Assembly: GCA_020630225.1 (NCBI GenBank)
Contig: JAHDBS010000005.1
Coordinates: forward strand, 1 to 37,896
Source: Anaerolineales bacterium
GTDB taxonomy: Bacteria > Chloroflexota > Anaerolineae > Anaerolineales > UBA6668
Length of the DNA stretch: 37,896 nt
Direction of reading: 5' to 3'
Both the position numbers and the translations under genes were made by a program. The notes beneath the pieces are model-generated. The model had not been told where the DNA came from, did not search any database, and saw only the letters and a list, made by a program, of their open reading frames with translations. Positions 2,987 through 20,869 of this stretch are shown here, one piece after another. Within the stretch, counting starts at the first letter, position 1. The number at the start of each line of letters is the position of its first letter.

Positions 2987-4123
2987 TTATGTGCTGATTG
3001 CGGTTTCTGGGAATGGCAGTGCGACGACTTTGCCAGCATAGCGTTGGCCGTTTTCATCGGTGATGACAATGGGGTGGTTCGGTGTCCAATACCCGCGATC
3101 CAACATGCCTAAGGCAACGTTTTGTTTGAACCGTGGTGACCAGATGGCCGTTGTCACTATCCCTACCTGCATTTCTTCAACCGATATACGCCAAGGTTGG
3201 CGACAAGGAGGACACTTCTGCGTTCCAAATAGAACTCCGCGGATTTGTTGGGTTATTCCAGCTGCCCTGATGCGCTCTAAAGCAGTTTTGCCAATGTAAT
3301 GCAGGTCAGGATCAAATGAGCAGTATTGTTCGAGGCCACATTCCAGTGGATTATTGGCATTGGTCATTTCATTACCTAGTGACAGTAACCCGCCTTCAAC
3401 ACGCTCAATGAGATTAGGACTGCCAGGAGAAATATTGAAAGATTGTCCGGCATTCCAAATGGCATCCCATAGTGCTAGGCCTAAGCTGGGCTTGTCAAGA
3501 TACAACTCAAATCCGCCTTGTTTACTATATCCAGAGCGTGCAATTAGCAATGGGTGGCCTTGAAATTCAAGCCACTTGAAACGGAAGAAACGGATTTCAC
3601 GGACATCAGAGCCAAAGATTGTCTCTAAGACATCGTCAGATTTTGGCCCTTGAACGGCTAATGGCCAAACGTCAGCTTCTTGAACTGCAACATCTAATCC
3701 ATATCCCTGTGCTAAGCCTTTTGCCCAAAGTGCTACATCAGAGTCGGCAATTGAAAGCCAAAACCGATTTTCTGATAACTTGAGAATAATCGGATCGTTG
3801 ATCATGCCAGCGTTTGCGTCAATGAGCGGGGCATAGAAACATTGACCGACTTTCGCTTTTCGCAGGTCACGCGGTGTCATGAGCTGTGTTAGCTTGGCTG
3901 CATCTGGCCCACACACCTCGATTTGGCGCTGACAGCCAACGTCCCAGAGCTGTACATGCTCACGTAAATGCCAATAGTCTTCTTCTACCGTTTTACGAAA
4001 GCCTTTAGGCAAAATTGTACGATTGACAATGGAATAGGCAGATACACCAAGTGCTTCAACGCGGGCTGTATAAGGTGTGCCGCGTTGGCGACGTGAAACT
4101 GTTAGCTTGACTGGAGTTGTCAT
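2987..4123 (-). CDS. GcvT-fold aminomethyltransferase, DmdA-like (THF-dependent demethylase family)
   Basis: Blocks WDV..QRQIEV.GPDA, IRFFRFKWLEFQG, ARSGYSKQGGFELY and PNLIERVEGGLLSLGNEM match, from my memory, the DMSP-demethylase-like clade of the glycine-cleavage T family. Start chosen at ATG 4123, which overlaps the upstream TGA (ATGA, 4120-4123). The track start at 4135 is a TTG. Confidence 0.8.
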   Translation of the reverse strand: MTTPVKLTVSRRQRGTPYTARVEALGVSAYSIVNRTILPKGFRKTVEEDYWHLREHVQLWDVGCQRQIEVCGPDAAKLTQLMTPRDLRKAKVGQCFYAPLIDANAGMINDPIILKLSENRFWLSIADSDVALWAKGLAQGYGLDVAVQEADVWPLAVQGPKSDDVLETIFGSDVREIRFFRFKWLEFQGHPLLIARSGYSKQGGFELYLDKPSLGLALWDAIWNAGQSFNISPGSPNLIERVEGGLLSLGNEMTNANNPLECGLEQYCSFDPDLHYIGKTALERIRAAGITQQIRGVLFGTQKCPPCRQPWRISVEEMQVGIVTTAIWSPRFKQNVALGMLDRGYWTPNHPIVITDENGQRYAGKVVALPFPETAIST

Positions 4124-4467
4124 GCGGACCACCAAATAGAGTAAGAGTGGGGTGCTAACATCATTGGAATGTGGATGCGTTCGTTTGGCGCTTTGATACG
4201 AACCTGAACAGTTACGGCATCAACAATTTGGGAGATATTGGGAATATTTGGCTGTGCTGTGAAATAGTCCGCAGTGTGAAAGACTAATTCACAGCGTGTG
4301 TCAACGGGCACGTTGATTTCCTCTGCAATGCGCCCTTGCTCATCTGAAATGACATTAAACAATTCCACGTCAGCTTGCCCATCTGTTCTTAGATTGCAGG
4401 AAATGCGAATATGCTTGGCATGATCTCCTAAAACCGAGTCTAAGACATGTGAAGATAGCGTTGCCAT
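4120..4467 (-). CDS. Transthyretin-like / 5-hydroxyisourate hydrolase family protein with a non-canonical C-terminus
   Basis: MATLSSHVLDSVLG... N-terminus and ...IHIPMMLAPHSYS... near the C-terminus are the two conserved His-containing blocks of the TTR/HIUase fold. Start is ATG 4467, preceded by AGAGG-N7. The C-terminal tetrapeptide is WWSA rather than the YRGS signature of HIU hydrolases. Confidence 0.75.
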   Translation of the reverse strand: MATLSSHVLDSVLGDHAKHIRISCNLRTDGQADVELFNVISDEQGRIAEEINVPVDTRCELVFHTADYFTAQPNIPNISQIVDAVTVQVRIKAPNERIHIPMMLAPHSYSIWWSA

Positions 4468-4477
4468 TTTTTTACCT

Positions 4478-6199
4478 CTATTCGATTGATGCCTTGTCAC
4501 GCTTGCTGGTCGTAGCTAACACAATGGGGCTGATATAGCCTTTTGTTTTGACATTTACGCACGCTGTTTTTCCACTTGCTATAGCGCGTTTTACTGCAGG
4601 CACTAAGTCTGCCGGGTTTTCAACCAGCTCGCCATAGCCACCTAGCCCTTCAAACATGGTATGGAAAGGAATGTCTCTAAAGTCTGTGGCAAAGTGAGTG
4701 CCGTTTTCAAATAACCGCTCTTGCTGTTGTGAAATGCAGTCTAGGCCACCGTTGTTATCAATGACAACTACAATTGGCAGCTTTTCTTGGAAAGCTGCCT
4801 CAATGCTGAGCCCACCGGACAGAAAGGCACCGTCACCGCTAATCACAACGACATTACTATCTGGATGGGTAAGTTTTGAGGCAATGCCGAAACTTACTCC
4901 AACACCTAACATGCTGAATGTCCCCGGATGCAGAATATTGCCTAGCTTTTGGCCCTGATACCCAGCAATATTGATTGCGATTTCAGACCAGAAGTGTGTG
5001 TTACCACCGTCAATCACCAGCCAGTCATCATCACCCATTGCCGACTGCACATCTAGTGCGACTTGCAACGGATGTGGCTTACCACCAGTCTCTTCTAAGC
5101 TTGGAATGTCAGCTAAGGTTTTGGCTACCCATTCTCCGCGCAGCTTACGGTTTAGCTCAAACCAACTACGGTCCAACGTCCATCGTCCCGCGTCTTCAAG
5201 TCCGCGCACTGCATCCAAAAATGCGTTGGCGTCGCTCAGTAGCTGAATGTCTGCTGCTCGATTGAGCTGTAATTCTTCATGAGAGCCGTTGACACATACG
5301 AGCTGGGTCGTTGCTGGAAAGAACGGCGGATTCCCAAAATTCATTTGATTATCCAATCGTCCGCCGATCATGATCACTAGATCTGAATTGTGTAATGCAT
5401 ATTTTGACGGCGGGTATTGATGGATATCAGCGAGGCCCATATAGGCTTCTACTTCTTCACCTAATAGCTTTTGATGATAGGGCACATTGAAGACTGGTAT
5501 GCCAAGAGCTTGCCCAACTTCTTCTAATTTACGCTCAGCATTAGCCCACCAAACACCATGCCCGCCTATCAATATTGGCCGTTGAGCAATTTCAAGTTGA
5601 TTGAGAATAATGTCTAGGTCTTCCGGACACGGCCAAGCGCGTGGCGGACGACTAGCTGTGCGCGAAAAGGGACGCTCATCGCGTCCAGCGCCGATATCGA
5701 AAGAGCTAAACATAATATCGACTGGCAAACTAAGATGGACTGGTCCAGGGTAGCCTGTTGTAGCAATTGTCCATGCACGATCTACAAACTCAGGGATACG
5801 TTCGCCATGGGTAATTTGCGCACTATACTTTGTGAGCGGTGCTGCAATGGCGACATCATCAATTTCTTTGAATCCACCACTGCCTTGACGTTTCAGCGTG
5901 CTAGATCCGGTAATGAAAATAACAGGCGAACGTTCTCCCCAAGCCTCCATCATCGCTGGAACAGCATTTGCAAATCCTTCTGGTCCCACAAGACAGACTG
6001 CTGGTTGGCGGTTAATGCGCGTGTAACCATCTGCTAAGTGTCCTGCGACCTGCTCATGTGGTGCGTTGATGACCGGTATTTCGCACTGCATGAAACCTTC
6101 TAGAGCAGGATTACAAAATCCGCCGCTCAGCGTAAAGACTTGTTTGACGCCTTTTTCTTGAAATGCACGTGCTAACAACGCGCCCCCTCGTACTTTCAT
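4478..6199 (-). CDS. Thiamine-diphosphate-dependent enzyme (acetolactate synthase / benzoylformate decarboxylase / oxalyl-CoA decarboxylase superfamily)
   Basis: 573-aa ORF. The N-terminal Pyr domain is (G)ALLARAFQEKGVKQVFTLSGG. The C-terminal ThDP-binding motif is GDGAFLSGG...VVIDNNGG. The ATG at 6199 overlaps the upstream stop (ATGA). Confidence 0.85.
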   Translation of the reverse strand: MKVRGGALLARAFQEKGVKQVFTLSGGFCNPALEGFMQCEIPVINAPHEQVAGHLADGYTRINRQPAVCLVGPEGFANAVPAMMEAWGERSPVIFITGSSTLKRQGSGGFKEIDDVAIAAPLTKYSAQITHGERIPEFVDRAWTIATTGYPGPVHLSLPVDIMFSSFDIGAGRDERPFSRTASRPPRAWPCPEDLDIILNQLEIAQRPILIGGHGVWWANAERKLEEVGQALGIPVFNVPYHQKLLGEEVEAYMGLADIHQYPPSKYALHNSDLVIMIGGRLDNQMNFGNPPFFPATTQLVCVNGSHEELQLNRAADIQLLSDANAFLDAVRGLEDAGRWTLDRSWFELNRKLRGEWVAKTLADIPSLEETGGKPHPLQVALDVQSAMGDDDWLVIDGGNTHFWSEIAINIAGYQGQKLGNILHPGTFSMLGVGVSFGIASKLTHPDSNVVVISGDGAFLSGGLSIEAAFQEKLPIVVVIDNNGGLDCISQQQERLFENGTHFATDFRDIPFHTMFEGLGGYGELVENPADLVPAVKRAIASGKTACVNVKTKGYISPIVLATTSKRDKASIE

Positions 6200-7341
6200 A
6201 GTTCTAAATCCTTTGCAAAATAGTGCTGATCACAAAGCACTGTTTGGTCAAGCTGTTCGATAGTCGTAACGCCTAATTGCGCCATCGCGATGCTAAGTTC
6301 AGTTTTGAGTAAATTGATGATGTCTGCTAAACCTGCAGCTTGGTTAGCGCCTACACCATATAAAAACGGCCGTCCAAGCATGACAAAATCTGCGCCAAGC
6401 GCAATCGCCTTGATGATGTCTTCGCCCCCACGAATACCACTGTCAAAAAGCAATGGATAGTCTTTGCCAACAGATTTGCGAATTTTTGGGAGCTGCCAAA
6501 TCGCGGGTGGGGCGCTATTGAGTTGACGTCCACCATGGTTAGAAACATAAATGGCATCGACGCCTATAGTCTGTATTCTGTGGGCGTCTTCGGGATGCAA
6601 TACCCCCTTTACAATGAGGTGATGTGGCCATTGTGCGCGAAGTTTTTCTAGAAATTTCCAATCGATGAAGCCGCGGCTGGCATTGCGATTTACAGGCTTG
6701 CCGTCTTTACCAATTTTCAGATTTGCTAACGAGGGCCGCCCAGCAAGCAGGCTGCGAATAGACCAATTGGGGTGAGAGGCAAAGTCAATAAATTGACGGA
6801 GGCCGATTTTAAACGGCACCTGAAATCCGTTTCGTAAATCTCGCACACGCGGCGCAACTTGAGGAACATCCACTGTAAAAACGAGGGTCTTGTAGCCAGC
6901 ACTTAAGCAGCGATCAACAAGTGCAAAAGCTTGCGTTTCAGACTGACTGACATATAACTGAAACCACGCTTTTTGCTTGGTAAGTGCTGCTATATCCTCA
7001 ATGCTGGTTGAAGACATTGTTGAAAGAACAAGCGGAATATTGTGCTGCTCCGCAGCTTGAGCTAAGAGATGGTCAGCATGTGGCCAAGCGAGGTTGCACA
7101 TTCCCATTGGCGCAATGCCAAAAGGGACATTCCATGTTTGTCCCAAGAATGTTGTTGACACATCCCGCTGATCGCTTTTGACCAGCACGCGGGGTTGTAA
7201 TAGCACAGCGTCCAGCGCTTCCTTATTTCGGGCCTTGGCTTGCTCGCCGCCAGCTGCGCCATCAATAAAATCGAAGATCAATTGTGGCAGTCGGCGTTGT
7301 GCTAGGGCGCGGGCGTCAGCAATGGAGTAAAGAGTGGGCAT
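6196..7341 (-). CDS. FMN-dependent alpha-hydroxy acid dehydrogenase/oxidase (LldD / mandelate dehydrogenase / glycolate oxidase family)
   Basis: The family hallmark VSNHGGRQL, GADFVMLGRPFLYG and overall length support the call. The start is ambiguous: ATG 7341 (MPTLYSIADAR..., preferred) or TTG 7356 as in the track. Confidence 0.85.
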   Translation of the reverse strand: MPTLYSIADARALAQRRLPQLIFDFIDGAAGGEQAKARNKEALDAVLLQPRVLVKSDQRDVSTTFLGQTWNVPFGIAPMGMCNLAWPHADHLLAQAAEQHNIPLVLSTMSSTSIEDIAALTKQKAWFQLYVSQSETQAFALVDRCLSAGYKTLVFTVDVPQVAPRVRDLRNGFQVPFKIGLRQFIDFASHPNWSIRSLLAGRPSLANLKIGKDGKPVNRNASRGFIDWKFLEKLRAQWPHHLIVKGVLHPEDAHRIQTIGVDAIYVSNHGGRQLNSAPPAIWQLPKIRKSVGKDYPLLFDSGIRGGEDIIKAIALGADFVMLGRPFLYGVGANQAAGLADIINLLKTELSIAMAQLGVTTIEQLDQTVLCDQHYFAKDLEL

Positions 7342-7514
7342 AGTGTGTCTTGGCAAATGTGTTCTTAGCTACGATGAATACGCAAACGTGCAACTTTTTA
7401 GAATGTAATTTCAAATTGATCGCTTTCGTTTATTGTGTTCGAGTCTGTTTTTCAATAAATTGCCTGCGGCTTAAGCCATCAATTTATGCGATTGACGTGT
7501 GTTATGCTTGCCGT

Positions 7515-8444
7515 ATGGACACCTTAAGCCACACTCCAAATGATCCTGTTGACTACATCGCAGTCACGCATGAAACTTACGATAAGCTGGGCTATGGTTC
7601 ATACCGTTGGGCAAATGAACCTGATCCTGTTGCACTGTCGCCACTACCCAAGCCGCTTGCTGACTGTAAGCTTGCGTTAATTGCCTCAGGCGGTATTTAT
7701 GCTGTCGGTCAAGTCGCGTTCAATCATAAAGATGACTTGTCATTCCGGCGCATTCCGACCACAGTTGCAACGGAAGATTTACGGACCTCCCATTTTGCTT
7801 ATGACATGACTGCAGCTCGCCAAGACCCTAATGTTGTCTTACCGCTTGCGCCTTTGCGCCAATTAGTTGCAGATGGTGAGCTTGGGTCGCTCACTGAACA
7901 TGCACTAACGTTTATGGGAGGCATCTATTCTCAGCGTAAACTGCGTGAACAGCTTATTCCTGAAATTGTTGCCAATGTGCAGGAGATGGGGGCAGACATT
8001 GCATTGCTCGTCCCAGTCTGACCAGTGTGTCATCAGTCCGTGGGGCTGATCTCCAGAGCACTTGAAAAAGTAGGGATTGCGAGTTTGTCAATGACAAGTG
8101 CGCTGTCCATTACACAATCGGCTAACCCAGCGCGGGCTGCTTTCTTAGATTTTCCACTTGGGCACACAGCTGGACGTCCTAATGAACCAACTGAACAAGT
8201 CGAGATCATGCGTCAAGCGCTAGGCCTATTTGAGAGTATTACCGAGTCAGGCACTATAGTCTCTTTGCCATTTATCTGGCCTGGCAATTGGAAACCAGAA
8301 GCGCGTTTGCCAATTGACCATCGCACGCCAAGGTATGACACGCCACAATATCAGACAGATGCGGACCGTGAACGCGCAGTTGTCGCCCATGGTGAACTGC
8401 TTGCTTGCACAGCTTGTGCGCCTCAAGATGTTCCGCGTAGCTAA
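7515..8444 (+). CDS. Glycine/sarcosine/betaine/D-proline reductase component B (GrdB/PrdB) family selenoprotein. The in-frame UGA at 8019-8021 is read as selenocysteine.
   Basis: Track ORFs 7350..8021 and 8025..8444 are in the same frame and separated only by TGA-CCA. The joined peptide ...GADIALLVPV-U-PVCHQSVGLISRALEKVGIASLSM gives the U-x-x-C...E-x-x-G-I core. The upstream block DPNVVLPLAPLRQLVADGELGSL matches the GrdB/PrdB family as I recall it. ATG 7515 (MDTLSH...) is the first plausible start. The upstream part of the track ORF overlaps the divergent promoter. Confidence 0.75.
8025..8061 (+). promoter_or_regulatory. Candidate bacterial SECIS stem-loop directing Sec insertion at UGA 8019-8021
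   Basis: Upper stem AUCAGUCC/GGGCUGAU (8032-8039/8043-8050; 8 pairs including one G-U) closes a G/U-containing apical loop (GUG, 8040-8042). Lower stem is GUGU/GCAC (8025-8028/8058-8061). The apical loop sits about 21 nt from the UGA, within the usual bacterial SECIS window. Confidence 0.45.
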
Positions 8445-8448
8445 GCCT

Positions 8449-9651
8449 CTAAGTCATAGGCATTAGGCGTTGCAACGGTCGCCAAGCTAACAACACTACA
8501 GCCCCAATTGCTGCGCCACCAATGGCTATGGCAGTTGGGGCGCCTGTATATTCTGCAATCCCTCCTAAAAAGACCCCTCCAACCCAGGTGAAGCCAAATA
8601 CTTGGGTGTAAATTCCTTGTACACGCCCCTGCATTTCATCTGTAGTATTGAGTAATACCGACGCAGTTAGCGTGACTTCAAAGGCCATCAGGGCTGCTTG
8701 CATTAGCCCAGCTAAGACTAGTGAAAGTGCTAACCAAGTCGAAAATGAGAACGCTAAAATCCCGGCGGAAGTTAGAATGCCACTGGTAATAACAAGCTTA
8801 GTTTTGTCTTTGTAGTCGCCTAAACTGGCAATGAGGGCTGTAGAAATCAGTGATCCTAAAGCACCTGCACCAGTTAAGTACCCAAAAGCAGAGGCATCTC
8901 CGGCGAGGACGTCACGTGCGACGACCGGCAGCATTGTTAAGTTGGACCAGCCAAGGAAGGACATCAAGAATCCGAGCGTAATCAACCACAACAGAATTTG
9001 GCTTTGCCAAATGTAAGTGATACCTTCCTTAACTGCTGCGCTTACAGCAATTGTTTGAGTGATGGGTTGGAAATTGCCAGCGACAAATAACACGCAGATA
9101 GCGGAGATTACACCAGTACCGACTGCGAAGAAATACCCATATTCAACGCCAAATTGAGCAATAATTACGCCAACCAATGCAGAGGCAGCTACGTTGCCAA
9201 GGTTGAAGCCTAACATTTGCGCGGCAGAGGCGTTGAGGACAGCTTCTTTCTTTACAACTGACACAATCATGGTATTGATTGCTGGCCAGCGCACGGAAAT
9301 GAGTACTCCTTCAAAAAACGCTGCCACAAATACGTGCCATAAAGCAATCTGTCCGGTCAGAATCAGAATAGCTAATACAAGAGCAACAAAGCTGTTGCCA
9401 ATTTCTACCCAAAATAGCGCGGTTTTCCGGTCAACGCGATCTAACATTACGCCAGCGAATGCACCGAGCAGAATTTGGGTTAGCCCTCGTACGGCTGGGG
9501 CTGCGCCGACCCAAAAGGGCGAGTCTGTAAGTGTAAGGACAAGCCAACCGCGCGCAACAAACACCGCAATGAGGCGAGCAGATCCGAATACAGAATTGAA
9601 CCAAAGCCAGCGATATGCTGGTAATTTCAACGTCTCTACTAGATTACGCAT
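8449..9651 (-). CDS. MFS transporter (12-TM type)
   Basis: 400-aa highly hydrophobic ORF with repeated TM segments and the MFS loop motif G..LDR.DRK (GVMLDRVDRKT) after TM2. Confidence 0.85.
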   Translation of the reverse strand: MRNLVETLKLPAYRWLWFNSVFGSARLIAVFVARGWLVLTLTDSPFWVGAAPAVRGLTQILLGAFAGVMLDRVDRKTALFWVEIGNSFVALVLAILILTGQIALWHVFVAAFFEGVLISVRWPAINTMIVSVVKKEAVLNASAAQMLGFNLGNVAASALVGVIIAQFGVEYGYFFAVGTGVISAICVLFVAGNFQPITQTIAVSAAVKEGITYIWQSQILLWLITLGFLMSFLGWSNLTMLPVVARDVLAGDASAFGYLTGAGALGSLISTALIASLGDYKDKTKLVITSGILTSAGILAFSFSTWLALSLVLAGLMQAALMAFEVTLTASVLLNTTDEMQGRVQGIYTQVFGFTWVGGVFLGGIAEYTGAPTAIAIGGAAIGAVVLLAWRPLQRLMPMT

Positions 9652-12742: not shown

Positions 12743-13699
12743 TTATCCTTGCGCAATTGCTGTGCGTAACCGTGGGTTGAGCAAGAGCGTTGCGATGTCT
12801 GCTGCGAGATTTACCAAGATGTAAATTGTTGCGAGAATGATTGCAATGCCTTGAACTAGGGCGAGGTCACGGTCGGAGATTCCGTTGATCATTAGTGTGC
12901 CAATCCCAGGATAGTTGAACACTGCCTCGATGATGACAACCCCACCTAGCAGCCAAGCAATGGTGAGCGCCACAATATTAATGGTGGGCAGCATTGCATT
13001 TGGTAAGGCGTGGCGCCAAACAATGCGCCATGCAGGCACGCCTTTAAGACGCGCCATGTTGATGTAATCGCTCACCATTACATCGATCATGCTGGTACGA
13101 ACAAGACGCAAAATGTGGGCCATCATCACTAAAGTTAGCGTAATGATTGGCAACCAAATGTTTGGAATAAGCTCAGTAATTTTGGCGTCAGTAGCTACAG
13201 TTGTAATAGCGGGGAACCACTTTAGCCGGATTGCAAAAACGAAAATTAGAATGGTGCCTGTTACAAATTCGGGCAGCGTCATTGCAAAAATTGAAATAGT
13301 AGAAATGATGATGTCTGGCAAGCGGTCTCGCATGAGCCCAGTCATTACACCAAGAAAGATTGCCAGCGGAATGCCTATGAGCGAGGATGCAACGGCAAGC
13401 ACAACAGTGTTGCGCAATCGATTGCCAATGAGCTCTGTCACAGGCTTACGGCGGACGAGCGAGTCGCCAAGATCGCCTTGAATAACACCGCCAAACCAAT
13501 CAAAGTAGCGGGTAACAGCAGGGCGATTTAGCCCAAATTCTTCTTGTAAGTTTGCAAGACTTTCTGGCGTGGCATCACGCCCTAAATAAGCGGTGGCCAT
13601 ATCGCCCGGCAGTGCTTCTACTGCCAGAAAAACGATAATTGACACGATGATGAGCGTAAGAATCGCAAGCATCAACCGCCTTAGTATGAGTCCAAACAT
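12743..13699 (-). CDS. ABC transporter permease, DppB/OppB-like
   Basis: MFGLILRRLMLAILTLIIVSIIVF... is the typical DppB N-terminus, and an EAA loop is present (MARLKGVPAWRIVWRHALPNA). Start is ATG 13699 preceded by GGAGG-N4. The track start at 13768 adds an implausible extension. Confidence 0.9.
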   Translation of the reverse strand: MFGLILRRLMLAILTLIIVSIIVFLAVEALPGDMATAYLGRDATPESLANLQEEFGLNRPAVTRYFDWFGGVIQGDLGDSLVRRKPVTELIGNRLRNTVVLAVASSLIGIPLAIFLGVMTGLMRDRLPDIIISTISIFAMTLPEFVTGTILIFVFAIRLKWFPAITTVATDAKITELIPNIWLPIITLTLVMMAHILRLVRTSMIDVMVSDYINMARLKGVPAWRIVWRHALPNAMLPTINIVALTIAWLLGGVVIIEAVFNYPGIGTLMINGISDRDLALVQGIAIILATIYILVNLAADIATLLLNPRLRTAIAQG

Positions 13700-13754
13700 A
13701 GTTCCTCCAAATGTCCTGTCTTGTTTGGCGAGTGAGTAGACCAGAGCTAAGTGC

Positions 13755-13769
13755 AGTGAGCTGCTCACT
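13755..13769. promoter_or_regulatory. Variant LacI-type operator (AGTGAGC-T-GCTCACT) upstream of the permease/ATPase genes
   Basis: It has the same GTGAGC/GCTCAC half-sites as the two perfect palindromes at 14888 and 15045, but with one extra central base. It lies 56 nt upstream of the permease start codon. Confidence 0.5.
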
Positions 13770-13850: not shown

Positions 13851-14879
13851 TTAGTGTGACAAGGCTGCGATTTGGCGCGACTTGGTTGAGCCACGCAGCA
13901 CCAGTTCTATATCCAATAAGGTGGGTGGATAAATGATGTCTGGTGTTTTTATCATTTCTAAAAGCTGTTCCATCGCAAGCTGTCCAATTTCGAAGCTTGG
14001 GATGCGTAAGGTAGTTAGTGCAGGAAAAACATGTGCTGCTACAGAGATGTCGTCATAACCAATGACAGAAATATCATCTGGCACGTTTAGACCCATGTCA
14101 CGACAGGCGTGCATTGCTGCAATGGCCATCATGTCGTTATACGCAACAATCGCGGTTAGGTCTGGATTACGCGTCACGAGTTGCTTCGTCGTGCGGTGAG
14201 CAGCTTCCAAGTTGGTGTTGCTTGCTTGCATGATCCAATTTGAATTGACTTCAAGCCCAAGCGATTGAAACCCTTTTTTATACCCTTTGACGTGGAAAAT
14301 ATTTTCTTGGTCGCCAGGCCGTGTGAGAAGCCCCACCTTACGATGACCAGACCCGATCAAATATTCAATTAGGGATTGGGTCGCACGCTCAATATCGGTA
14401 GTAATAGATGTTAAGTTTGGCGCACTCATGTTGCGGTGGACAACAACAATAGGTAGATTTTTGTCTGCAAAACTTGCAACTGTCTGCAAGTCCAAGTGTG
14501 TGCTTGACAGAACAATGCCATCTACATTTTCTGAAATTAGCGCATTTATGGTTTCAATTTCAGCATCGCGCACATAGTTTGTGGTGCGAATAAACACATT
14601 GTAGCCAACTGTTTGCGCCATTGTTTCCAAGCCGCGAATAACTTCGGAATGAGCCGGATTCAAGATATTGCCAATAACTAATCCAATAGTCTTTGATTGA
14701 TTGCTCGCCATCCCTCGAGCTAATCGGCTGGGGCGGTAGCCAAGTTCCTCAATAGTCGCAAGAACGCGTTGGCGCGTTTTCTCGCTAATCCCATTCATAT
14801 TATTAATGGCACGCGAAACGGTTTGGCGTGACACACCAGCATATTTCGCGACATCATCAATCGTAATATTTTTCTTCAT
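13851..14879 (-). CDS. LacI/GalR-family transcriptional regulator
   Basis: The N-terminal HTH MKKNITIDDVAKYAGVSRQTVSRAINN is followed by a periplasmic-binding-protein-like sugar/ligand domain. Start is ATG 14879. The track GTG 14900 lies inside the operator palindrome. Confidence 0.9.
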   Translation of the reverse strand: MKKNITIDDVAKYAGVSRQTVSRAINNMNGISEKTRQRVLATIEELGYRPSRLARGMASNQSKTIGLVIGNILNPAHSEVIRGLETMAQTVGYNVFIRTTNYVRDAEIETINALISENVDGIVLSSTHLDLQTVASFADKNLPIVVVHRNMSAPNLTSITTDIERATQSLIEYLIGSGHRKVGLLTRPGDQENIFHVKGYKKGFQSLGLEVNSNWIMQASNTNLEAAHRTTKQLVTRNPDLTAIVAYNDMMAIAAMHACRDMGLNVPDDISVIGYDDISVAAHVFPALTTLRIPSFEIGQLAMEQLLEMIKTPDIIYPPTLLDIELVLRGSTKSRQIAALSH

Positions 14880-14887
14880 AAAGTTTG

Positions 14888-14901
14888 CGTGAGCGCTCAC
14901 G
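14888..14901. promoter_or_regulatory. LacI-type operator, perfect 14-bp palindrome CGTGAGCGCTCACG (autoregulatory position)
   Basis: Perfect palindrome 9 nt upstream of the lacI ATG and immediately downstream of a minus-strand promoter-like TTGCAA-17-TAAACT. An identical copy is at 15045-15058. Confidence 0.6.
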
Positions 14902-14902
14902 T

Positions 14903-14931
14903 AGTTTAGTTGCGAACAGATGTTATTGCAA
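14903..14931 (-). promoter_or_regulatory. Putative sigma70-type promoter of the lacI (and possibly permease) transcript
   Basis: Read on the minus strand: TTGCAA (14931-14926), 17-nt spacer, TAAACT (14908-14903). The operator palindrome starts 1 nt after the -10 element. Confidence 0.45.
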
Positions 14932-15012
14932 GTGAAAATCGTTTTTGCTTAGACTTTTGGCTGTTTTTTTTATTTTTGCAGTCGTATTGTTATAAATTGC
15001 TGCTGATTCGTG

Positions 15013-15042
15013 TTGACAAAACGTATTTCTGCACTTTATAGT
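15013..15042 (+). promoter_or_regulatory. Putative sigma70-type promoter of the SBP-Rieske-aminomethyltransferase operon
   Basis: TTGACA (15013-15018), 18-nt spacer, TATAGT (15037-15042). The operator palindrome begins 2 nt downstream. Confidence 0.5.
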
Positions 15043-15044
15043 TG

Positions 15045-15058
15045 CGTGAGCGCTCACG
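15045..15058. promoter_or_regulatory. LacI-type operator, perfect 14-bp palindrome CGTGAGCGCTCACG over the predicted transcription start of the SBP operon
   Basis: Identical to the copy at 14888-14901, including the 5' flank TTG (TTGCGTGAGCGCTCACG in both). It is positioned directly after the -10 element. Confidence 0.65.
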
Positions 15059-15157
15059 AGTTATATCTACTTTATAACAGTGATGCGTCCTCATGAGAAT
15101 GGTCTCGCTATTCTCGCCACACTTTCGTTTTAGAAAATTAGTTTGGAGAAAAGAAGC

Positions 15158-16786
15158 ATGAAGAAAGTTTCCCTTTTAGTCATCTTGGGTGCTTTGCTAA
15201 TGGCTGCTCTCGCTGCATGTGCAGCGCCAGAGCCAGAAGTAATTATTCAAGAAGTTGAAGTCACAACTGTTGTCGAAGTTGAAAAAGAAGTCGAAGTTGT
15301 TGTAACTGAAGTGGTTGAAGTTGAGAAAGAAGTTGAGAAAGTTGTTGAGGTTGAAAAAGAACTAAGCAACCGTGGGATTTTCCGCATTCCACACGATGGC
15401 GCCTGGGGTGGGACTGAAAATGTAGATCCTGTCGATCCTGCACGTTTTTACCCAACTATCACCATGATTTACGATGGTCTCGTGCGCCAAGGGGCTAGCG
15501 GTAGCCCAGCCCCAAGTCTTGCTAAAGATTGGAGCGCGAACGAAACTGCGGATGTGTGGACCTTCAACTTGCGCGAAGGTGTTATGTTCCATGATGGTTC
15601 CCCAATGACCTCTGCCGATGTAGCTTACTCAGTGGTTCACTGGCAAACAGAACCTTCAACTATTGCACCAGTATTGGCAATTGTTGAAAGTGTTGACACA
15701 CCGGATGATTACACTGTAGTCATGAATTTGAACCAAGCTCACGCTGACTTCCCACTGCTGATTATGGATTACCGCGCACGTGTTATTCCTGCAGACAGTG
15801 CTGAAACCATTCGTGACACTGGTATGGGTACCGGTCCATTCAAATTAGAAAAATTGGATGTAGAAGGGACCACTATTCTGACTGCAAATGACGACTATTG
15901 GGGTGGTCCTCCAGGGATGGCTGGGGTAGAAGTTCACCATATTCCAGATTCAGAAGCACAATTGCAAGCATTCTTGGCTAGCCAAGTTGACTGGTTAGAT
16001 ATGACCCTTGCACAAGCTGAATTGGCAGAAGCCACCGGCGGCTTTGACATCATTTCCTTCCCTGCTGGCGGTTGGTCAGGTCTGATTATGCGGACAGACA
16101 TTCCACCATTCGACAACCCAGATTTGCGTCGTGCAATGCGTGTTGTTGCTGATCGCCAAGCAATGGTTGACATTGCTCTTTCAGGGGCAGGGATTGTTGC
16201 CTGTGATACACCAGTCAAGCCAGACGATCAATATCGCTTCAATCCAGACTGCTCACCAAATCCAGAATTGGCAACTGAATTGTTAGCATCTGCTGGCTAC
16301 AGTGGCGAAACGCTGACCTTGCACATTTCAGACGTATGTCCAGACTGGACGCCTCTAGCTGAAATCTATCAACAACAATTGGCCGCTGTTGGCGTCAATT
16401 TGGATATCAATGTCGTGCCATCTGATGGGTACTGGACAGATGCTTGGATGGTTGAACCATTCTCAGCAACCTGTTGGGGTGAACGTCAAGCGGACCAAAT
16501 CTTGAATGAAGCCTATCGCTCTGGTGGGTCTTGGAACGAAACTTACTTCAACAATGAAGAGTTCGATGGCCTCTTAGATGCAGCGCGCCAAGAACTGGAC
16601 TTCGATGCACGTAAGGCCTTGTACCAAGGTGCACAAGAAATCTTGTGGAACGAAGGTGGGGCGCTTATTCCTTACCATGGTACAAACTTCCGTGGTACGA
16701 CCCAATGTGTAATTGGGGTGCCTTCAGTTTACGAATTCCAAGTGAACTGGGCAGATATCTCTGTTACGCCTGGCTGTGCGAACTAG
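15158..16786 (+). CDS. ABC transporter substrate-binding lipoprotein, family 5 (DppA/OppA/NikA-like)
   Basis: ATG 15158 is preceded by GGAGAA. The signal peptide has a lipobox LAAC (Cys codon 15218-15220), followed by a V/E-rich linker and then an SBP_bac_5-like body (LVRQG.., NDDYWGG.P). Confidence 0.9.
   Translation: MKKVSLLVILGALLMAALAACAAPEPEVIIQEVEVTTVVEVEKEVEVVVTEVVEVEKEVEKVVEVEKELSNRGIFRIPHDGAWGGTENVDPVDPARFYPTITMIYDGLVRQGASGSPAPSLAKDWSANETADVWTFNLREGVMFHDGSPMTSADVAYSVVHWQTEPSTIAPVLAIVESVDTPDDYTVVMNLNQAHADFPLLIMDYRARVIPADSAETIRDTGMGTGPFKLEKLDVEGTTILTANDDYWGGPPGMAGVEVHHIPDSEAQLQAFLASQVDWLDMTLAQAELAEATGGFDIISFPAGGWSGLIMRTDIPPFDNPDLRRAMRVVADRQAMVDIALSGAGIVACDTPVKPDDQYRFNPDCSPNPELATELLASAGYSGETLTLHISDVCPDWTPLAEIYQQQLAAVGVNLDINVVPSDGYWTDAWMVEPFSATCWGERQADQILNEAYRSGGSWNETYFNNEEFDGLLDAARQELDFDARKALYQGAQEILWNEGGALIPYHGTNFRGTTQCVIGVPSVYEFQVNWADISVTPGCAN
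15251..15361 (+). repeat. Intragenic low-complexity tandem repeat encoding a (V/E/K/T)-only linker
   Basis: The peptide EVEVTTVVEVEKEVEVVVTEVVEVEKEVEKVVEVEKE is encoded by reiterated GTTGAAGTTGAGAAAGAA-like units directly after the lipobox. Confidence 0.8.
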
Positions 16787-16816: not shown

Positions 16817-16853
16817 GGGCAGTCACTCGTATGAGCGGCTGCCCTTTTTTATT
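16817..16853 (+). terminator. Strong intrinsic terminator / intra-operon attenuator after the SBP gene
   Basis: GGGCAGTCACTC-GTAT-GAGCGGCTGCCC pairs 11 of 12 positions (16817-16844) and is followed by TTTTTTATT. It starts 31 nt after the SBP stop and ends only about 10 nt before the Rieske gene ATG. Confidence 0.8.
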
Positions 16854-16863
16854 CAACTTTACT

Positions 16864-17988
16864 ATGACGATTGAATTCAATCCTTTGTTATCTAATCCTG
16901 CTGAGTCGCCAACCTTACCTGGACATTTTTATTCCGACCCGCAGGTGTTGAAACTTGAGAAAGAGACTATTTTTTATAAGCATTGGCAACTGGTTGCGCA
17001 TGTGTCGCAGCTGCCAAATGTGGGTAGTTATGTAACTTCTCAAATTGTGGATCAGGATGTCATTGTCCTGCGTGGACAGTCGGGTGCGATAAAAGCTTTT
17101 TATAACGTATGTCAGCATCGGGCGCATGAATTGTTGAGTGGGCGTGGGGAGGTCAAATCGCGTATTGTGTGCCCGTATCATGCGTGGACCTATGACTTGA
17201 ATGGGTCGCTCACAACAGCCCGGCATTGTGATCACATGCCTAACTTTGCTAAACAAGACTACGGACTAGTTCCAGTTCGCACTGAAGTTGCGTTGGGGTT
17301 TATCTTCGTCAATTTAGATGACAATGCCCCTAGTCTGCAGAGCGTTGCTGGAGAGATGTTCGCGGATATGCAAGAGCAATGTCCATGGATTACCGAAATG
17401 GTTGTGGACCCAGTCTTGTCGGAAGACAGCTGGGAAGGCGCACCGCTAAATGCAAATTGGAAGGTCCTCGCAGAGAACTGTTTGGAGTGCTACCACTGTG
17501 CGGTGGCGCACCCTGCGTTTGTGGATTTAGTGGATCTTGATGATTACGTTTGCCAACCGCATGACAATTGGCTGCGTAGTTATGGCAAGCTCCGCAAGTA
17601 CAAGAACAAAGCCTACGATGTTGAGCCAGACGAGCCGTCACAAAATGCTATCTTTTGGCATCTATGGCCAAATGTGGAGTTTGGTGTTGTTCCTGGCGAA
17701 GCGGCCATTGGTGGCTTTCGGTTTTATCCAGCAAGTTCGCACGTTACAAAGATGACCTCCATCATGTTGACTAAGCCAGGTGAAAGTATCAAAGAAGATC
17801 GCATTAACTATCGCTGGAATGTTCTTTGGGCAGAGGATGAGGCTATCTGTCAATCTGTGCATCGGGGGTTACAATCGAAAGGTTATCGACAAGGCCGCTT
17901 TGTTGTTGACCCGACATATGAGGGCATCAGCGAGCACGCGGTGCATTATTTTCAACTCAAATATGCAAAGGCGCTTGGCTTGAAATAG
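16864..17988 (+). CDS. Rieske [2Fe-2S] non-heme-iron oxygenase, alpha/oxygenase subunit (GbcA/CntA/Stc2/VanA-like demethylating monooxygenase class)
   Basis: The Rieske motif is CQHRAH-x16-CPYHAW. The mononuclear Fe site is ENCLECYHCAVAHP (H-x4-H). The N-terminal LPGHFYSDPQVLKLEKETIFYKHWQLVAH is typical of the class. ATG 16864 is the only start upstream of that block and outside the terminator. Confidence 0.85.
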   Translation: MTIEFNPLLSNPAESPTLPGHFYSDPQVLKLEKETIFYKHWQLVAHVSQLPNVGSYVTSQIVDQDVIVLRGQSGAIKAFYNVCQHRAHELLSGRGEVKSRIVCPYHAWTYDLNGSLTTARHCDHMPNFAKQDYGLVPVRTEVALGFIFVNLDDNAPSLQSVAGEMFADMQEQCPWITEMVVDPVLSEDSWEGAPLNANWKVLAENCLECYHCAVAHPAFVDLVDLDDYVCQPHDNWLRSYGKLRKYKNKAYDVEPDEPSQNAIFWHLWPNVEFGVVPGEAAIGGFRFYPASSHVTKMTSIMLTKPGESIKEDRINYRWNVLWAEDEAICQSVHRGLQSKGYRQGRFVVDPTYEGISEHAVHYFQLKYAKALGLK

Positions 17989-18031
17989 TCATCAGCGCTA
18001 ACGCCTTATTACTAAATTTAGGCAGTATCCA

Positions 18032-19156
18032 ATGAAGCATCCGATCCCAAAGATTTCACTGACTGCACGTATTCGCAAGTCGCCTTACTACGACGCAACG
18101 GTTAAGCACGGCATTAAGGTGCTGTCAGTCTATAACCACATGTATATGCCATCGATTTATGAAGATCTGATGACAGACTATGAGAACCTAACCAAACGCG
18201 TCACACTTTGGGATGTTGCGGTAGAACGCCAAGTTGAGATTGTTGGGCCAGACGCCGCAGCATTTACACAATATCTAACGTGTCGTGATATCAGCAAATG
18301 TAAAGTGGGGCAGTGTATGTACGTGCCCATTGTAGATGACCAAGGTGGGCTGCTAAATGATCCGATTATGCTCAAGTTAGCTGAGGATCGATTTTGGCTT
18401 TCTTTGGCTGACTATGACATTTTACTCTGGGCGAAAGGTCTCAATGTTCATATGAAACTGGATGTTGAAATTTTCGAGCCAGATGTATCGCCACTTGCAG
18501 TTCAGGGACCGAACTCAACTGCACTTATGGTTGACTTGTTTGGGGATTGGATAAATGAGTTGAAATTCTTTTGGTTTCGGGAAGCCGAACTAAATGGAAT
18601 TCCAATGGTCATTGCGCGTTCAGGGTGGAGCAAGCAGGGCGGCTTTGAACTTTACTTGCAAGACGGATCACGCGGTGTTGAGTTATGGGAAACGGTTTGG
18701 GCTGCTGGTGAAAAATACGGTATTGCGCCTGGCGCACCGCATGGGATTGAACGTATCGAAAGCGGATTGCTCAACTATGGGCATGACCTATTGCCAGATA
18801 TGAACCCGTGGGAAGCGGGCTTAGGGCAGTATGTGCATTTAGACATGGTAGCCAACTTTGTTGCTAAAGACGCGTTGAAAGCGATTAAGGCAGACGGAAT
18901 CAAGCGTCAGTTAGTTGGCGTAATTATTGACGGTGATCCATTGCCAGTGAATGATCAAAACTGGAACATTCCGGGCTACTCAATGGCTGAAGCACGTCTG
19001 ACAAGTTTTACTTGGTCGCCGCGCTATCAACAAAATGTAGGGATGGCGCTGTTGCCAATTGCGATGACAACAGTGGGCACACGGTTAACCGTAAACACGC
19101 CTCACGGTCATTTGCTGGCGACCGTGGTTGGACTGCCATTTTCAAAAACACTGTAG
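18032..19156 (+). CDS. GcvT-fold aminomethyltransferase, DmdA-like, paralog of 2987..4123
   Basis: ARIRKSPYYDATVKHGIKVLSVYNHMYMPSIY, WDVAVERQVEIVGPDAA, ARSGWSKQGGFELY and HGIERIESGLLNYGHD share the same conserved blocks as the first paralog and, as I recall it, DmdA. Confidence 0.8.
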   Translation: MKHPIPKISLTARIRKSPYYDATVKHGIKVLSVYNHMYMPSIYEDLMTDYENLTKRVTLWDVAVERQVEIVGPDAAAFTQYLTCRDISKCKVGQCMYVPIVDDQGGLLNDPIMLKLAEDRFWLSLADYDILLWAKGLNVHMKLDVEIFEPDVSPLAVQGPNSTALMVDLFGDWINELKFFWFREAELNGIPMVIARSGWSKQGGFELYLQDGSRGVELWETVWAAGEKYGIAPGAPHGIERIESGLLNYGHDLLPDMNPWEAGLGQYVHLDMVANFVAKDALKAIKADGIKRQLVGVIIDGDPLPVNDQNWNIPGYSMAEARLTSFTWSPRYQQNVGMALLPIAMTTVGTRLTVNTPHGHLLATVVGLPFSKTL

Positions 19157-19303
19157 AGTCGTGGATAGGCTGGTAAGCGCATTAAGATGCGGATCGCACA
19201 ACTAAGTTTCAAAATAAATGCACAGTTCTTAGGTGGATCCTTAGCGACTTGTAGCCTTGCGAGTGGAAAGGAGTATCTTCCAACTCTCAACTGTCAACAG
19301 ACG

Positions 19304-20869
19304 TTAGTTAGCCCAACGCTGATTTCCCGGACGCATTGCGCTTGGGTCTAAGACAATTGGAAATTTAGCCCGAATGGCGGCATCTGTTGTGGCATCAACA
19401 TGGCTTGGGTAGTGTGTCCGCATTATGGTTTTGACTTTTTCTTGAGCACGTTCCAGTATGCTAGTTGCGCCTTCGGCTTCCCATACCCCAAGCCCATTGC
19501 GGTCAGCTAGCTCTGGATAAAGGTAATCCGTTTCCATGCGTTCAAGAGTCTGGGGTTGGCCTAAGAAGTGGCCTGGGCCTAGGACGGCCTCACGAATTAC
19601 ATCAATTGACAGGGTTTCTTCGTTGACTTCAAGGCCTGCGAGGACACGTTGGGCGGCGCCTAACATATCATTGTCAATTACAAGTGCCTCTAGACTACAG
19701 CCCAACAAACTTCCGAGCATTCCTGCTGACTCCAACACACGGTTGGCTCCAGCTAACCCCGCAGTCACAGCGGTAATCCCTTTTTCATATCCGGCCTGGG
19801 CATCAGGATGTTTAGAATCAGTCATGCAGGCAGCAACGCTTGTAGGTAAGTCATAGAAGCGGCCAATTTGTGCACAGCAGGCCATGACAAGCGCCTCTTC
19901 TCCACTGCCTCCGGTAAATGCGCCAGTGCGTAAGTCTGACACAAACGGCCAAATTGCAAACGTCATTGGGCAACCGGGATTGATAATGTTGACTAGTGCT
20001 AAGCAGGCTAGCCCCTCTGCCGTGACCTGCGCTAATGAGCCAGCTAAGGCTGCTGGGGCTGTCGCACCAGCTTGGGGCGCAATCGCAATGTCATTGATGA
20101 GCCCCAACTTGCTTGTTTCAACTAAGACTTTGAGATTTTCTTCCCCAAATTTGAGTGGCGACACAATAGGGCAGCCTCCAAACGAGAGGAACGGCTTCTT
20201 TGCAAACCGGCCTTCACCACCAAGCACCATATCGAACAACTCAATCGCTGGCGCAATGTTTTCAACGTCGTTGAAGGTCATTTCACATGGCTTCTGCGTA
20301 GAGACAGCAGCAACGTAAGCAACGTTTATGTCATGAACGTATAAATCGGTGAGTTCGGTTGGGACGACCGTTTGCCCAAACTGATGTAAATTGTCGAGGG
20401 TATCAATTAGGCGCCCGCAGTCATATAAGTCTGTAATTGTGGACGCGCGAAAGGTACGGTTGACAGAGTCGTACATTCGAACGGCTTCACCACTGGATGC
20501 ATAATTGACGTGATAGCCACCAACGTGCACATCGGCAAATTCAGGACTGCGGCTGTAGATCGTATATTCCCGCGCAGCGCAGGCGATCATGTCTTCTACG
20601 AGTTGGCGTGGATAGCAGAGCCGACCATGCTCATTGAGAAAGCAGCCAGCAGCCGTTGCAATTTCAATTACTTCGTCTGTTGGGTCAGCAATTCCGATTG
20701 TTTCTAAAATTTCGAGCGCAGCCTGATGAATTTGCTGTAAATCTGTTTCGGAAAGAGGTTTGTATTGGCCGCCCAATAAGCCAGCTTTTACTGGTCGTTT
20801 TGAAACTGCGGCGGCGCGCATTGCGACCCGCGTTGCTCTTGCATTTTGTTGACGGCGTTTTCGTTTCAC
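19304..20869 (-). CDS. MttB-superfamily methyltransferase, non-pyrrolysine member (quaternary-amine:corrinoid methyltransferase-like, MtgB-type)
   Basis: The Arg/Lys-rich N-terminus is followed by GLLGGQYKPLSETDLQQIHQAALEILETIGI, and the central block is FGGCPIVSPLKF...APQAGATAPAALAGSLAQ. The ORF is uninterrupted, with no in-frame TAG. Start chosen at GTG 20869 with AAGGA-N5, 17 nt after the upstream stop. The track start at 21016 overlaps the preceding gene. Confidence 0.85.
   Translation of the reverse strand: MKRKRRQQNARATRVAMRAAAVSKRPVKAGLLGGQYKPLSETDLQQIHQAALEILETIGIADPTDEVIEIATAAGCFLNEHGRLCYPRQLVEDMIACAAREYTIYSRSPEFADVHVGGYHVNYASSGEAVRMYDSVNRTFRASTITDLYDCGRLIDTLDNLHQFGQTVVPTELTDLYVHDINVAYVAAVSTQKPCEMTFNDVENIAPAIELFDMVLGGEGRFAKKPFLSFGGCPIVSPLKFGEENLKVLVETSKLGLINDIAIAPQAGATAPAALAGSLAQVTAEGLACLALVNIINPGCPMTFAIWPFVSDLRTGAFTGGSGEEALVMACCAQIGRFYDLPTSVAACMTDSKHPDAQAGYEKGITAVTAGLAGANRVLESAGMLGSLLGCSLEALVIDNDMLGAAQRVLAGLEVNEETLSIDVIREAVLGPGHFLGQPQTLERMETDYLYPELADRNGLGVWEAEGATSILERAQEKVKTIMRTHYPSHVDATTDAAIRAKFPIVLDPSAMRPGNQRWAN

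Follow-up and report, generated by a model that had tools for sequence, protein, structure and literature searches.

In saline habitats, dimethylsulfoniopropionate (DMSP), betaines and similar onium compounds serve as major sources of carbon, nitrogen, sulfur and one-carbon (C1) units, and Alpha- and Gammaproteobacteria are mostly held responsible for their turnover. The genes for betaine catabolism are reportedly clustered in aerobes, as in gbcAB-dgcAB-soxBDAG of Pseudomonas. Four enzyme systems are the closest described relatives of the genes considered here. The DMSP demethylase DmdA belongs to the dmdABCD set and is known from Pelagibacter ubique (SAR11_0246, PDB 3TFH) and Ruegeria pomeroyi (SPO1913). 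SAR11 also has a DmdA paralogue of unknown substrate (Sun et al., PMC3160333). The group V Rieske oxygenases comprise CntAB in clade Va and GbcAB/BmoAB and Stc2 in clade Vb. CntA position 203 is Tyr or Phe, making a pi-cation contact, in clade Va and Asn in clade Vb (PMC7948474). The MttB-superfamily methyltransferases without a pyrrolysine (Pyl) codon include MtpB, MtcB, MtyB and MtgB of the Desulfitobacterium hafniense MtgB/MtgC/MtgA system. Glycine betaine is contacted in MtgB by Y97, R312, H348 and F356 (PMC13080624). PrdB and GrdB/F/H belong to the D-proline and glycine/sarcosine/betaine reductases of Clostridia. Relatives of all four are encoded within 18 kb of a 37,896-bp contig (JAHDBS010000005.1, assembly GCA_020630225.1) of an Anaerolineales bacterium of the Chloroflexota. 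This whole contig is referred to as the window.

The initial annotation had read these genes as one catabolic island in which four demethylation strategies stand side by side. Gene families were assigned by Pfam and NCBIfam profile scans using the curated NCBIfam equivalog cut-offs. All of the annotated genes were present where they had been placed. The family assignments and a broad theme of methyl-group and onium-compound catabolism also held, given 15 MttB and five DmdA-like genes in the genome, MttB-DAO-GcvT pairs on three contigs and betaine-type regulators beside MttB orthologues. The single island was not borne out. The genes fall into at least four transcription units, A to D, which are taken as separate because of strand changes, gene packing and the distribution of a LacI operator that was found only at unit C. 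Synteny extends to one sister species, in which one DmdA-like gene (DmdA1) is replaced, and was absent from a second congener and from the wider relatives sampled. This stretch has probably arisen by accretion of independently inherited modules within an accessory part of the genomes of a single Anaerolineales genus, with a common theme and no common pathway or regulator. At least four units with separate histories would have gathered side by side. The theme would be the breakdown of small methylated molecules of onium type and of an aromatic acid.

The window is contig C254 of a metagenome-assembled genome (MAG) of 4.84 Mb in 604 contigs, which is 78.5% complete. Gene absences are provisional in this fragmented and incomplete assembly. 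It was compared with G001, a MAG of the sister species in the same genus, and G002, a second congener that is 91% complete. Gene families, operon packing, operator distribution, synteny and residue departures were observed, and substrates and reaction order were inferred.

Unit A runs from 7356 to 2987 on the minus strand and consists of four genes overlapping by 4-23 bp (Table 1). The closest solved structures to its flavin mononucleotide (FMN)-dependent dehydrogenase (FMNdh) are L-lactate oxidase and (S)-mandelate dehydrogenase. Those closest to its thiamine diphosphate (ThDP)-dependent enzyme are 2-hydroxyacyl-CoA lyase and oxalyl-CoA decarboxylase (~203 bits). The transthyretin-fold protein (TTR) fell under the hydroxyisourate hydrolase cut-off (63 vs 87 bits). 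DmdA1 scored 519.7 bits with the DMSP-demethylase equivalog NF009133 (cut-off 410) and aligned over its full length with P. ubique DmdA (44% identity, 364 bits). Orthologues of the ThDP enzyme at 71-74% identity were found in three Pseudomonadota genomes (loci L080-L082), all with a transthyretin-fold gene at the same operon position. The order FMNdh-ThDP-TTR-DmdA is intact in two of the three (G359 and G568), where DmdA is 52-58% identical to DmdA1 and shares only 48-49% identity with the characterised enzyme of P. ubique. One of these two genomes is 1.6 Mb in size with a GC content of 31.5% at the locus. The third genome (G423) has the block without DmdA. Unit A is a self-contained block shared across phyla, as shown by the same gene order and the identity of the ThDP enzyme in Pseudomonadota. 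No other window gene was found in the ~4.7-kb loci fetched around these matches. G359 has a 58% homologue of the window Rieske gene on a different stretch (L051), the gene list of which includes no ThDP enzyme. The other partners of the ThDP enzyme are far less conserved across phyla, at 47-52% for FMNdh and 29-33% for TTR.

In G001 the place of DmdA1 is taken by an arylmalonate-decarboxylase (Amdase)/Asp-Glu-racemase-like gene (L044, G001:C217, 10570-16303). The end of unit A is a variable spot, since G001 has both this replacement and an insertion there. The insertion comprises hydantoinase A, hydantoinase B and class I/II aminotransferase genes between the Amdase-like and beta-lactamase-fold genes. 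The G001 replacement had raised the idea that DmdA1 is a loosely attached terminal gene, which was overturned by the intact operon in Pseudomonadota. Unit A would oxidise and then decarboxylate or cleave a 2-hydroxy acid bearing a methyl-sulfonium or methyl-ammonium group. DmdA1 would hand one methyl group to tetrahydrofolate (THF).

Unit C is a divergon, with a LacI-family repressor gene (lacI) and the importer operon on the minus strand and an operon of solute-binding protein (SBP), Rieske and DmdA2 genes on the plus strand. The earlier report of a major facilitator superfamily (MFS) transporter and a complete ATP-binding cassette (ABC) importer was accurate, as SBP_bac_5, a pair of permeases and a fused double ATPase are all present. 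The palindrome CGTGAGCGCTCACG occurs twice in the window, both times in the lacI/SBP intergenic region, and no further copy was found at up to 2 mismatches. Both copies are exact in G001, and 1-2 mismatches were seen in a Promineifilaceae locus (L017). The best sigma-70-like promoter of the span is at 15013-15042. The visible LacI regulon is predicted to cover unit C alone, because the palindrome was found only in this intergenic region. LacI would repress both arms, that of the importer and MFS genes as well as that of SBP-Rieske-DmdA2. A site with three mismatches, CATCAGCGCTAACG at 17990-18003 between the Rieske stop and the DmdA2 start, was rejected as a third operator as it is within chance expectation.

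The importer proteins are 93-95% identical to those of G001 and 79-80% identical to those of the Promineifilaceae MAG. The closest named relatives of the source genome were the Anaerolineales MAG JAHDIM010000014, in which the SBP is 93% identical, and a Candidatus Promineifilaceae MAG. The window SBP scored under all NikA/Opp equivalog cut-offs. The top NCBIfam matches of the MFS gene were efflux-type transporters, all under cut-off. The Promineifilaceae locus has the LacI-ABC-SBP core without Rieske or DmdA2. The importer-LacI core would be the older part, which Rieske and DmdA2 would have joined in this lineage. The Rieske enzyme would oxidise an imported methylated solute bearing a carboxylate, and DmdA2 would demethylate it with THF as the methyl acceptor.

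The Rieske gene had been classed as GbcA/Stc2/VanA. It is a Rieske oxygenase gene, and its closest solved relative is none of these three. The best solved relative was the carnitine monooxygenase CntA of Acinetobacter baumannii (278 bits, full length, 38% identity). The GbcA equivalog NF058607 gave 170.5 bits against a cut-off of 670 and matched the N-terminal half only. The Rieske ligands C94, H96, C114 and H117, the iron site H222, H227 and D336, the bridging E219 and a Cys pair (C-x-x-C) are kept. Cys217 aligns to CntA Y203 and is neither the Va nor the Vb signature. Among the carnitine-pocket residues of CntA only Y225 is kept, and the changes are F258A, N270G, Y295T, Y315R and F319L (residue roles from PMC7948474 and PMC10952381). 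No cognate reductase of CntB/GbcB type was found in the window, and the sole FNR-type (NAD_binding_1) reductase by a Rieske gene is on contig C408. Homologues at 58-60% identity adjoin SBP_bac_5 and alpha/beta-hydrolase genes (SBP_bac_5 in L051 and L053), and none stands by a GcvT-family gene. From its residues the enzyme is predicted to be group-V-like and to fit no characterised specificity.

A second CntA-like Rieske gene of the genome (contig C185, L064 1-5713; 39% identity to the window protein, g14) lies second in a row of AraC, Rieske, short-chain dehydrogenase/reductase, BKACE and aldehyde dehydrogenase genes. It was considered as a carnitine cluster, and this was dropped since the BKACE protein passes the 3,5-dioxohexanoate:acetyl-CoA acetone transferase equivalog.

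DmdA2 follows the Rieske gene. It scored 428.1 bits with NF009133 and aligned full length with P. ubique DmdA (41% identity, 315 bits). Both window genes thus exceed the 410-bit cut-off, as expected of the two DmdA-like THF-dependent demethylases first proposed. No DmdA-like gene was found at E<1e-60 in 300 other Anaerolineae genomes. No dmdB/C/D-type gene was detected beside either window DmdA by domain scans. DmdA2 homologues at 68-86% identity sit in other contexts. At 83% the order is IclR, a URO-D-B12 fusion, DmdA, a beta-lactamase-fold hydrolase (66% to g02, the hydrolase gene downstream of DmdA1), PRT, Rieske (38%) and alpha/beta-hydrolase. A 79% homologue has genes for an acyl-CoA synthetase and a beta-lactamase-fold hydrolase as neighbours. 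Next to a 68% homologue (L055) are genes for an ADP-forming CoA ligase, an acyl-CoA dehydrogenase and a MetE-like protein, a setting similar to that of dmdB/C. Links of the methylmercaptopropionyl-CoA (MMPA-CoA) type were seen only for this homologue and for the paralogue on contig C224, which has an acyl-CoA dehydrogenase. Because of the operons in which the two window genes stand, the lack of dmdB/C/D-type neighbours, the five paralogues and the SAR11 paralogue of unknown substrate, DMSP activity of the window DmdA proteins is unproven. The THF-dependent and Rieske components are credible catabolic enzymes.

Colinearity with G001 extends from the gene for the transthyretin-like protein to the APH gene, with proteins 74-95% identical, and a second G001 contig covers hpaI through alpha/beta-hydrolase. 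G002 has no orthologues of DmdA1, DmdA2, the Rieske gene, the window MttB or unit A. A Rieske orthologue was found in G001 alone among 60 relatives. The co-localisation is thus kept in G001 minus DmdA1, and was absent in G002 and in the wider relatives sampled.

Several observations weigh against separate accretion. In a simulation with uniform random placement of the genome's own copies, the probability of the four families falling within 18 kb was about 5e-5 to 2e-4, under a null that is naive because catabolic genes cluster in general. As random co-occurrence is improbable, a selective or mechanistic reason for the co-location is likely. The arrangement minus DmdA1 has been kept between two species in which the proteins differ by 5-26%. 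MttB is also linked to Dpp-type importers in other Anaerolineales. In one (L024, 9974-17463) MttB is inserted between the permease and ATPase genes of such an importer operon, and in another (L042, 4753-10279) the order is IclR-MttB-corrinoid protein-MttB-SBP_bac_5. The window MttB may use the unit C substrate. At 78.5% completeness, the absence of a corrinoid protein, of PrdA/GrdE and of a dedicated reductase is unproven.

Table 1. Positions, strands and profile matches of the features of the window.
Feature	Position	Strand	Domain or profile evidence
Beta-lactamase-fold serine hydrolase (g02), downstream of DmdA1	1565-2767	-	Pfam Beta-lactamase, 209 bits
DmdA-like THF methyltransferase 1 (DmdA1), last gene of unit A	2987-4135	-	Pfam GCV_T + GCV_T_C
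Transthyretin/HIUase-fold protein (unit A)	4120-4500	-	Pfam Transthyretin, 59.6 bits
ThDP-dependent enzyme (unit A)	4478-6199	-	Three TPP_enzyme domains
FMN-dependent 2-hydroxy-acid dehydrogenase/oxidase, first gene of unit A	6196-7356	-	Pfam FMN_dh, 412.7 bits
PrdB/GrdB-like selenoprotein, solitary gene divergent from unit A (unit B)	7515-8444	+	Pfam GRDB, C-terminal part only
MFS_3 (EntS-like) transporter, last gene of importer operon (unit C)	8449-9651	-	Pfam MFS_3, 108.7 bits
Dpp/Opp-type ABC importer, two permeases and fused double ATPase (unit C)	9779-13768	-	BPD_transp_1 x2, OppC_N, ABC_tran x2, oligo_HPY
LacI-family repressor (unit C)	13851-14900	-	Pfam LacI + Peripla_BP_3; CytR/RbsR/CcpA-like, under all equivalog cut-offs
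Divergent promoter region with two perfect palindromes CGTGAGCGCTCACG (14888-14901, 15045-15058)	14888-15058	.	
Family-5 solute-binding protein SBP_bac_5, first gene of SBP-Rieske-DmdA2 operon (unit C)	15143-16786	+	Pfam, 236 bits
Group-V-type Rieske non-haem-iron oxygenase (unit C)	16831-17988	+	Rieske + Ring_hydroxyl_A domains
DmdA-like THF methyltransferase 2 (DmdA2; unit C)	18032-19156	+	GCV_T + GCV_T_C
Non-Pyl MttB-superfamily methyltransferase, last gene of hpa-APH-MttB operon (unit D)	19304-20869	-	Pfam MTTB PF06253, 354.7 bits, profile positions 4-490/500
APH-fold kinase-like protein, 16 bp upstream of MttB (unit D)	20886-21980	-	Pfam APH, 126 bits; no NCBIfam match
Homoprotocatechuate meta-cleavage genes hpaI, hpaH-like, hpaD, IVS-protein gene, hpaE (unit D)	21992-26519	-	HpcH_HpaI, FAA_hydrolase domains

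The beta-lactamase-fold hydrolase g02 matched the methyl-acetate hydrolase AcmB only weakly (164 bits vs cut-off 550). Its homologues directly adjoin DmdA2-type genes in L054 (11210-12403, 66%) and L056 (2943-4130, 49%). A hydrolase of this fold thus stands beside a DmdA-like gene in three separate loci (window, L054 and L056), which suggests an esterase or amidase step tied to the DmdA-like demethylases.

Unit D is a tight operon in the order hpaE, IVS-protein gene, hpaD, hpaH-like, hpaI, APH, MttB, with gaps of 6-39 bp. The hpa genes named beside the cluster are genuine, with HpaD (TIGR02295, 370.8 vs 321.4 bits) and HpaE (TIGR02299, 751.5 vs 638 bits) exceeding their cut-offs as true equivalogs. 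The gene between hpaE and hpaD (24588-24950, minus strand) encodes a four-helix bundle of the 23S rRNA intervening sequence (IVS) type and occupies the same place in G001 (74%). The APH-MttB pair is kept in G001, and the G002 APH orthologue adjoins PALP and phosphoribosyl pyrophosphate (PRPP)-synthase genes. That MttB lacks Pyl was correctly called. The open reading frame is uninterrupted and contains no TAG in frame, the place of the Pyl codon is taken by AUG (Met), and TIGR02369 gave 359 bits against a cut-off of 525. A match to Rfam PYLIS_3 (19726-19825, minus strand; 47.8 bits vs gathering 38 bits) was rejected as a Pyl signal. AUG is aligned to UAG and the pairs are mostly non-canonical, so the match is taken as conserved coding sequence (TDSKxPDAQAGYEK).

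The window MttB is 31% identical to D. hafniense MtgB. The four contacts Y97, R312, H348 and F356 are replaced by G, S, E and L, and as all four have changed the protein is predicted not to be a glycine betaine enzyme of MtgB type. Twelve metagenome contigs with MttB orthologues at 72-75% identity had no other window gene nearby. Of 10 neighbouring genes that were scanned, those with domain matches were electron transfer flavoprotein (ETF) alpha and beta, BetI-type TetR, GbdR-type DJ-1/AraC, amine oxidase and class-III aminotransferase. A quaternary-amine methyltransferase is the most likely identity of this MttB. Of five B12-binding matches in the genome, none was on an MttB contig (in an assembly 78.5% complete with short contigs; the L042 relative has MttB-corrinoid-MttB). 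The proposed corrinoid-dependent route could not be shown, as no corrinoid protein was found near any MttB copy.

Units C and D could instead be integrated. The importer would bring in a methylated aromatic, for example an N-methylated arylethylamine or a methoxylated phenylacetate, three chemistries would demethylate it, and homoprotocatechuate would pass into the hpa pathway. MttB is the last gene of the compact hpa operon, hpaD and hpaE are true equivalogs, and DmdA2 ends 148 bp from the convergent MttB stop. The arrangement is kept in G001 and MttB is tied to Dpp-type importers in other Anaerolineales. Against this, no LacI operator was found near the hpa-MttB operon. On the LigM/DesA models of aryl-O-demethylases, for which the cut-offs are 580-800, the DmdA-like proteins reached only 38-50 bits, and the methoxylated aromatics proposed as a substrate for the island are not supported for that reason. 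The Rieske enzyme is nearest to the quaternary-amine group V and not VanA. MttB orthologues elsewhere adjoin betaine-type regulators and ETF, not hpa genes. The hpaI gene of G002 is on a separate contig, and G002 has no orthologues of MttB, Rieske or DmdA2. No MttB-family member is known to use aryl methyl ethers, as is established for the family (PMC13080624, PMC8604678). The combination was not seen elsewhere, and integration of the two units is considered unlikely. It is less likely still that they form an undescribed route in which a methylated aromatic amine or ether is imported by the LacI-controlled Dpp-type system, demethylated in one cell by the unrelated chemistries of Rieske, DmdA-type and MttB enzymes and cleaved through homoprotocatechuate meta-cleavage. 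If true, this route would be the first case of an MttB- or DmdA-family enzyme tied to aromatic catabolism, in an aerobic member of the Chloroflexota.

Unit B is a single gene. The PrdB/GrdB-family product was correctly identified as a selenoprotein. An in-frame TGA at 8019-8021 lies in the motif LLVPV-U-PVCHQ. Full-length homologues have Cys at the selenocysteine (Sec) position in the motif LLVPx(U/C)PxCHQ, and TGA is found at the same codon in four orthologues (G001, G002, L047 and L050, the last two from unrelated assemblies). The source genome has a tRNA-Sec (anticodon tca) and a SelB wing-domain fragment (contig C506). A GTPase gene by the tRNA-Sec on contig C205 was considered as SelB and proved to be BipA/TypA. 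A hairpin after the UGA is conserved in orthologues, and it has no energetic advantage over shuffled sequence (z = -0.24). It was dropped as a selenocysteine insertion sequence (SECIS) fold on this basis, its conservation being confounded with that of the peptide PVCHQSVGLI.

The reductive route that the family name implied was not supported. The PrdB model TIGR04483 gave 156.2 bits against a cut-off of 300, and the GrdB/F/H models gave 38-54 bits. A PF09338 (PrdA/GrdE) search of the source genome gave no match, and control genomes were likewise silent. No PrdA/GrdE/GrdA/C/D gene was seen in the window, in the L047 and L050 gene lists or among three genes examined next to the copy in G002 (L045), GrdA, GrdC and GrdD not having been searched separately. 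Homologues at 65% have DUF3151/ClpB on one side and unrelated genes on the other. The G002 copy (70%, with TGA) adjoins an enolase-superfamily gene and a flavin adenine dinucleotide (FAD) oxidoreductase. No description of a PrdB-like selenoprotein was found in the literature searched. The product is best regarded as a predicted orphan redox protein with a U-x-x-C motif and without a demonstrated betaine link.

These results bear on the methylated-osmolyte island of the initial annotation, in which glycine betaine, proline betaine, carnitine, DMSP or sarcosine would be degraded by four routes with oxic and anoxic options. In its favour, the four families do all occur here, betaine-type demethylation genes are very numerous in the genome, MttB orthologues elsewhere stand beside BetI- and GbdR-like regulators, and the clustering is improbable under the uniform null. 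Several observations speak against it. The PrdB-like protein fails the PrdB cut-off, its homologues are in unrelated contexts and PrdA/GrdE was not found in the assembly. MttB has none of the MtgB betaine contacts and no corrinoid protein near any copy. The Rieske pocket matches neither CntA, with Y203, nor GbcA/Stc2, with Asn there. The importer is of Dpp type under a sugar-type LacI and not of BCCT or OpuA/ProU type, and the units are separately regulated and separately inherited. The oxic/anoxic duality is not supported. The adjoining enzymes are O2-dependent, no anaerobic module is evident, and the regulators by MttB orthologues with ETF are of the aerobic betaine type. One osmolyte island is therefore improbable.

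MttB-family matches numbered 15 in the source genome, 13 in G002 and 11 in G001, with at least one in 37 of 61 relatives. The source genome has five DmdA-like paralogues and about five further GcvT-family genes (~10 in total), together with four Rieske-alpha homologues. The DmdA-like paralogues share 33-52% identity. Those outside the window scored 462.3 (C224), 375.4 (C399) and 340 bits (C80) with NF009133. On contigs C460, C222 and C581 of the source genome MttB directly adjoins a DAO-FAO_M-GcvT fusion of 807-871 amino acids, of dimethylglycine/sarcosine-dehydrogenase type. The C581 cluster additionally has MmyB-like and AsnC regulators and a molybdopterin oxidoreductase. A further MttB-GcvT pair was seen in G002 (C464). 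Several MttB-family genes of order-level relatives have a single in-frame TAG (G005:C494; G044:C1:2539331; G031:C1:395350), and these are possibly true pyrrolysine-type trimethylamine methyltransferases.

Pure chance adjacency without a theme, to which the 15 MttB, ~10 GcvT-family and four Rieske-alpha genes, the absence of the cluster from G002 and the different contexts of close homologues of each gene would lend themselves, is very unlikely given the simulation with the observed copy numbers, the gene order conserved between two species and the recurring pairs (four further contigs on which MttB is paired with a GcvT-domain gene, and three loci that combine a DmdA-like gene with a beta-lactamase-fold hydrolase).

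The accretion of independent modules remains the preferred account. Five DmdA-like and up to 15 MttB genes, against no DmdA-like gene in 300 Anaerolineae, point to gene gain and expansion. Through this gain and expansion a methyl-compound niche would have opened to a Chloroflexota lineage. The modules are compact and testable, namely SBP-Rieske-DmdA2 under a simple LacI switch and the cross-phylum FMNdh-ThDP-TTR-DmdA operon. The locus also calls for caution, as the family names PrdB, MttB and GbcA-class implied four routes that the residue and context tests do not support. DmdA1, DmdA2, HpaD and HpaE passed their subfamily models; scores on the PrdB, GbcA, TIGR02369 and LigM/DesA models fell short of the cut-offs.

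Compared with the described systems, each family departs from its nearest relative. The window DmdA proteins share the GcvT fold with DmdA of P. ubique and R. pomeroyi and pass the same equivalog cut-off. Unlike in dmdABCD, DmdA1 is in an FMNdh-ThDP-TTR operon, DmdA2 lies behind SBP and Rieske genes and there are five paralogues. The Rieske enzyme has the [2Fe-2S] ligands, the 2-His-1-Asp site, the bridging Glu and the C-x-x-C of group V. It differs in the Cys at the clade-defining position, the five pocket changes and the lack of an adjacent reductase, and its closer homologues (58-64%) are uncharacterised. MttB, like MtgB, MtpB, MtcB and MtyB, is a full-length superfamily member with no pyrrolysine codon. 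In contrast to the MtgB system it has no corrinoid protein, MtgA or RamA nearby, it shares an operon with hpa genes and the gene for an APH-fold kinase, and its orthologues stand by ETF and aerobic-type betaine regulators. The selenoprotein has a C-terminal domain homologous to that of PrdB and GrdB/F/H and carries Sec in U-x-x-C. It differs from them in being solitary and under the equivalog cut-offs, with Sec or Cys homologues in unrelated contexts. The closest parallels to the region as a whole are the Pseudomonas betaine cluster and the SAR11 methylovory gene set (PMC3160333). The window units, unlike those sets, are not steps of one known pathway, a Dpp-type transporter is under LacI and the host is of the Chloroflexota. 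The likeness is that chemically different demethylation enzymes are encoded closely and feed THF-bound C1 units.

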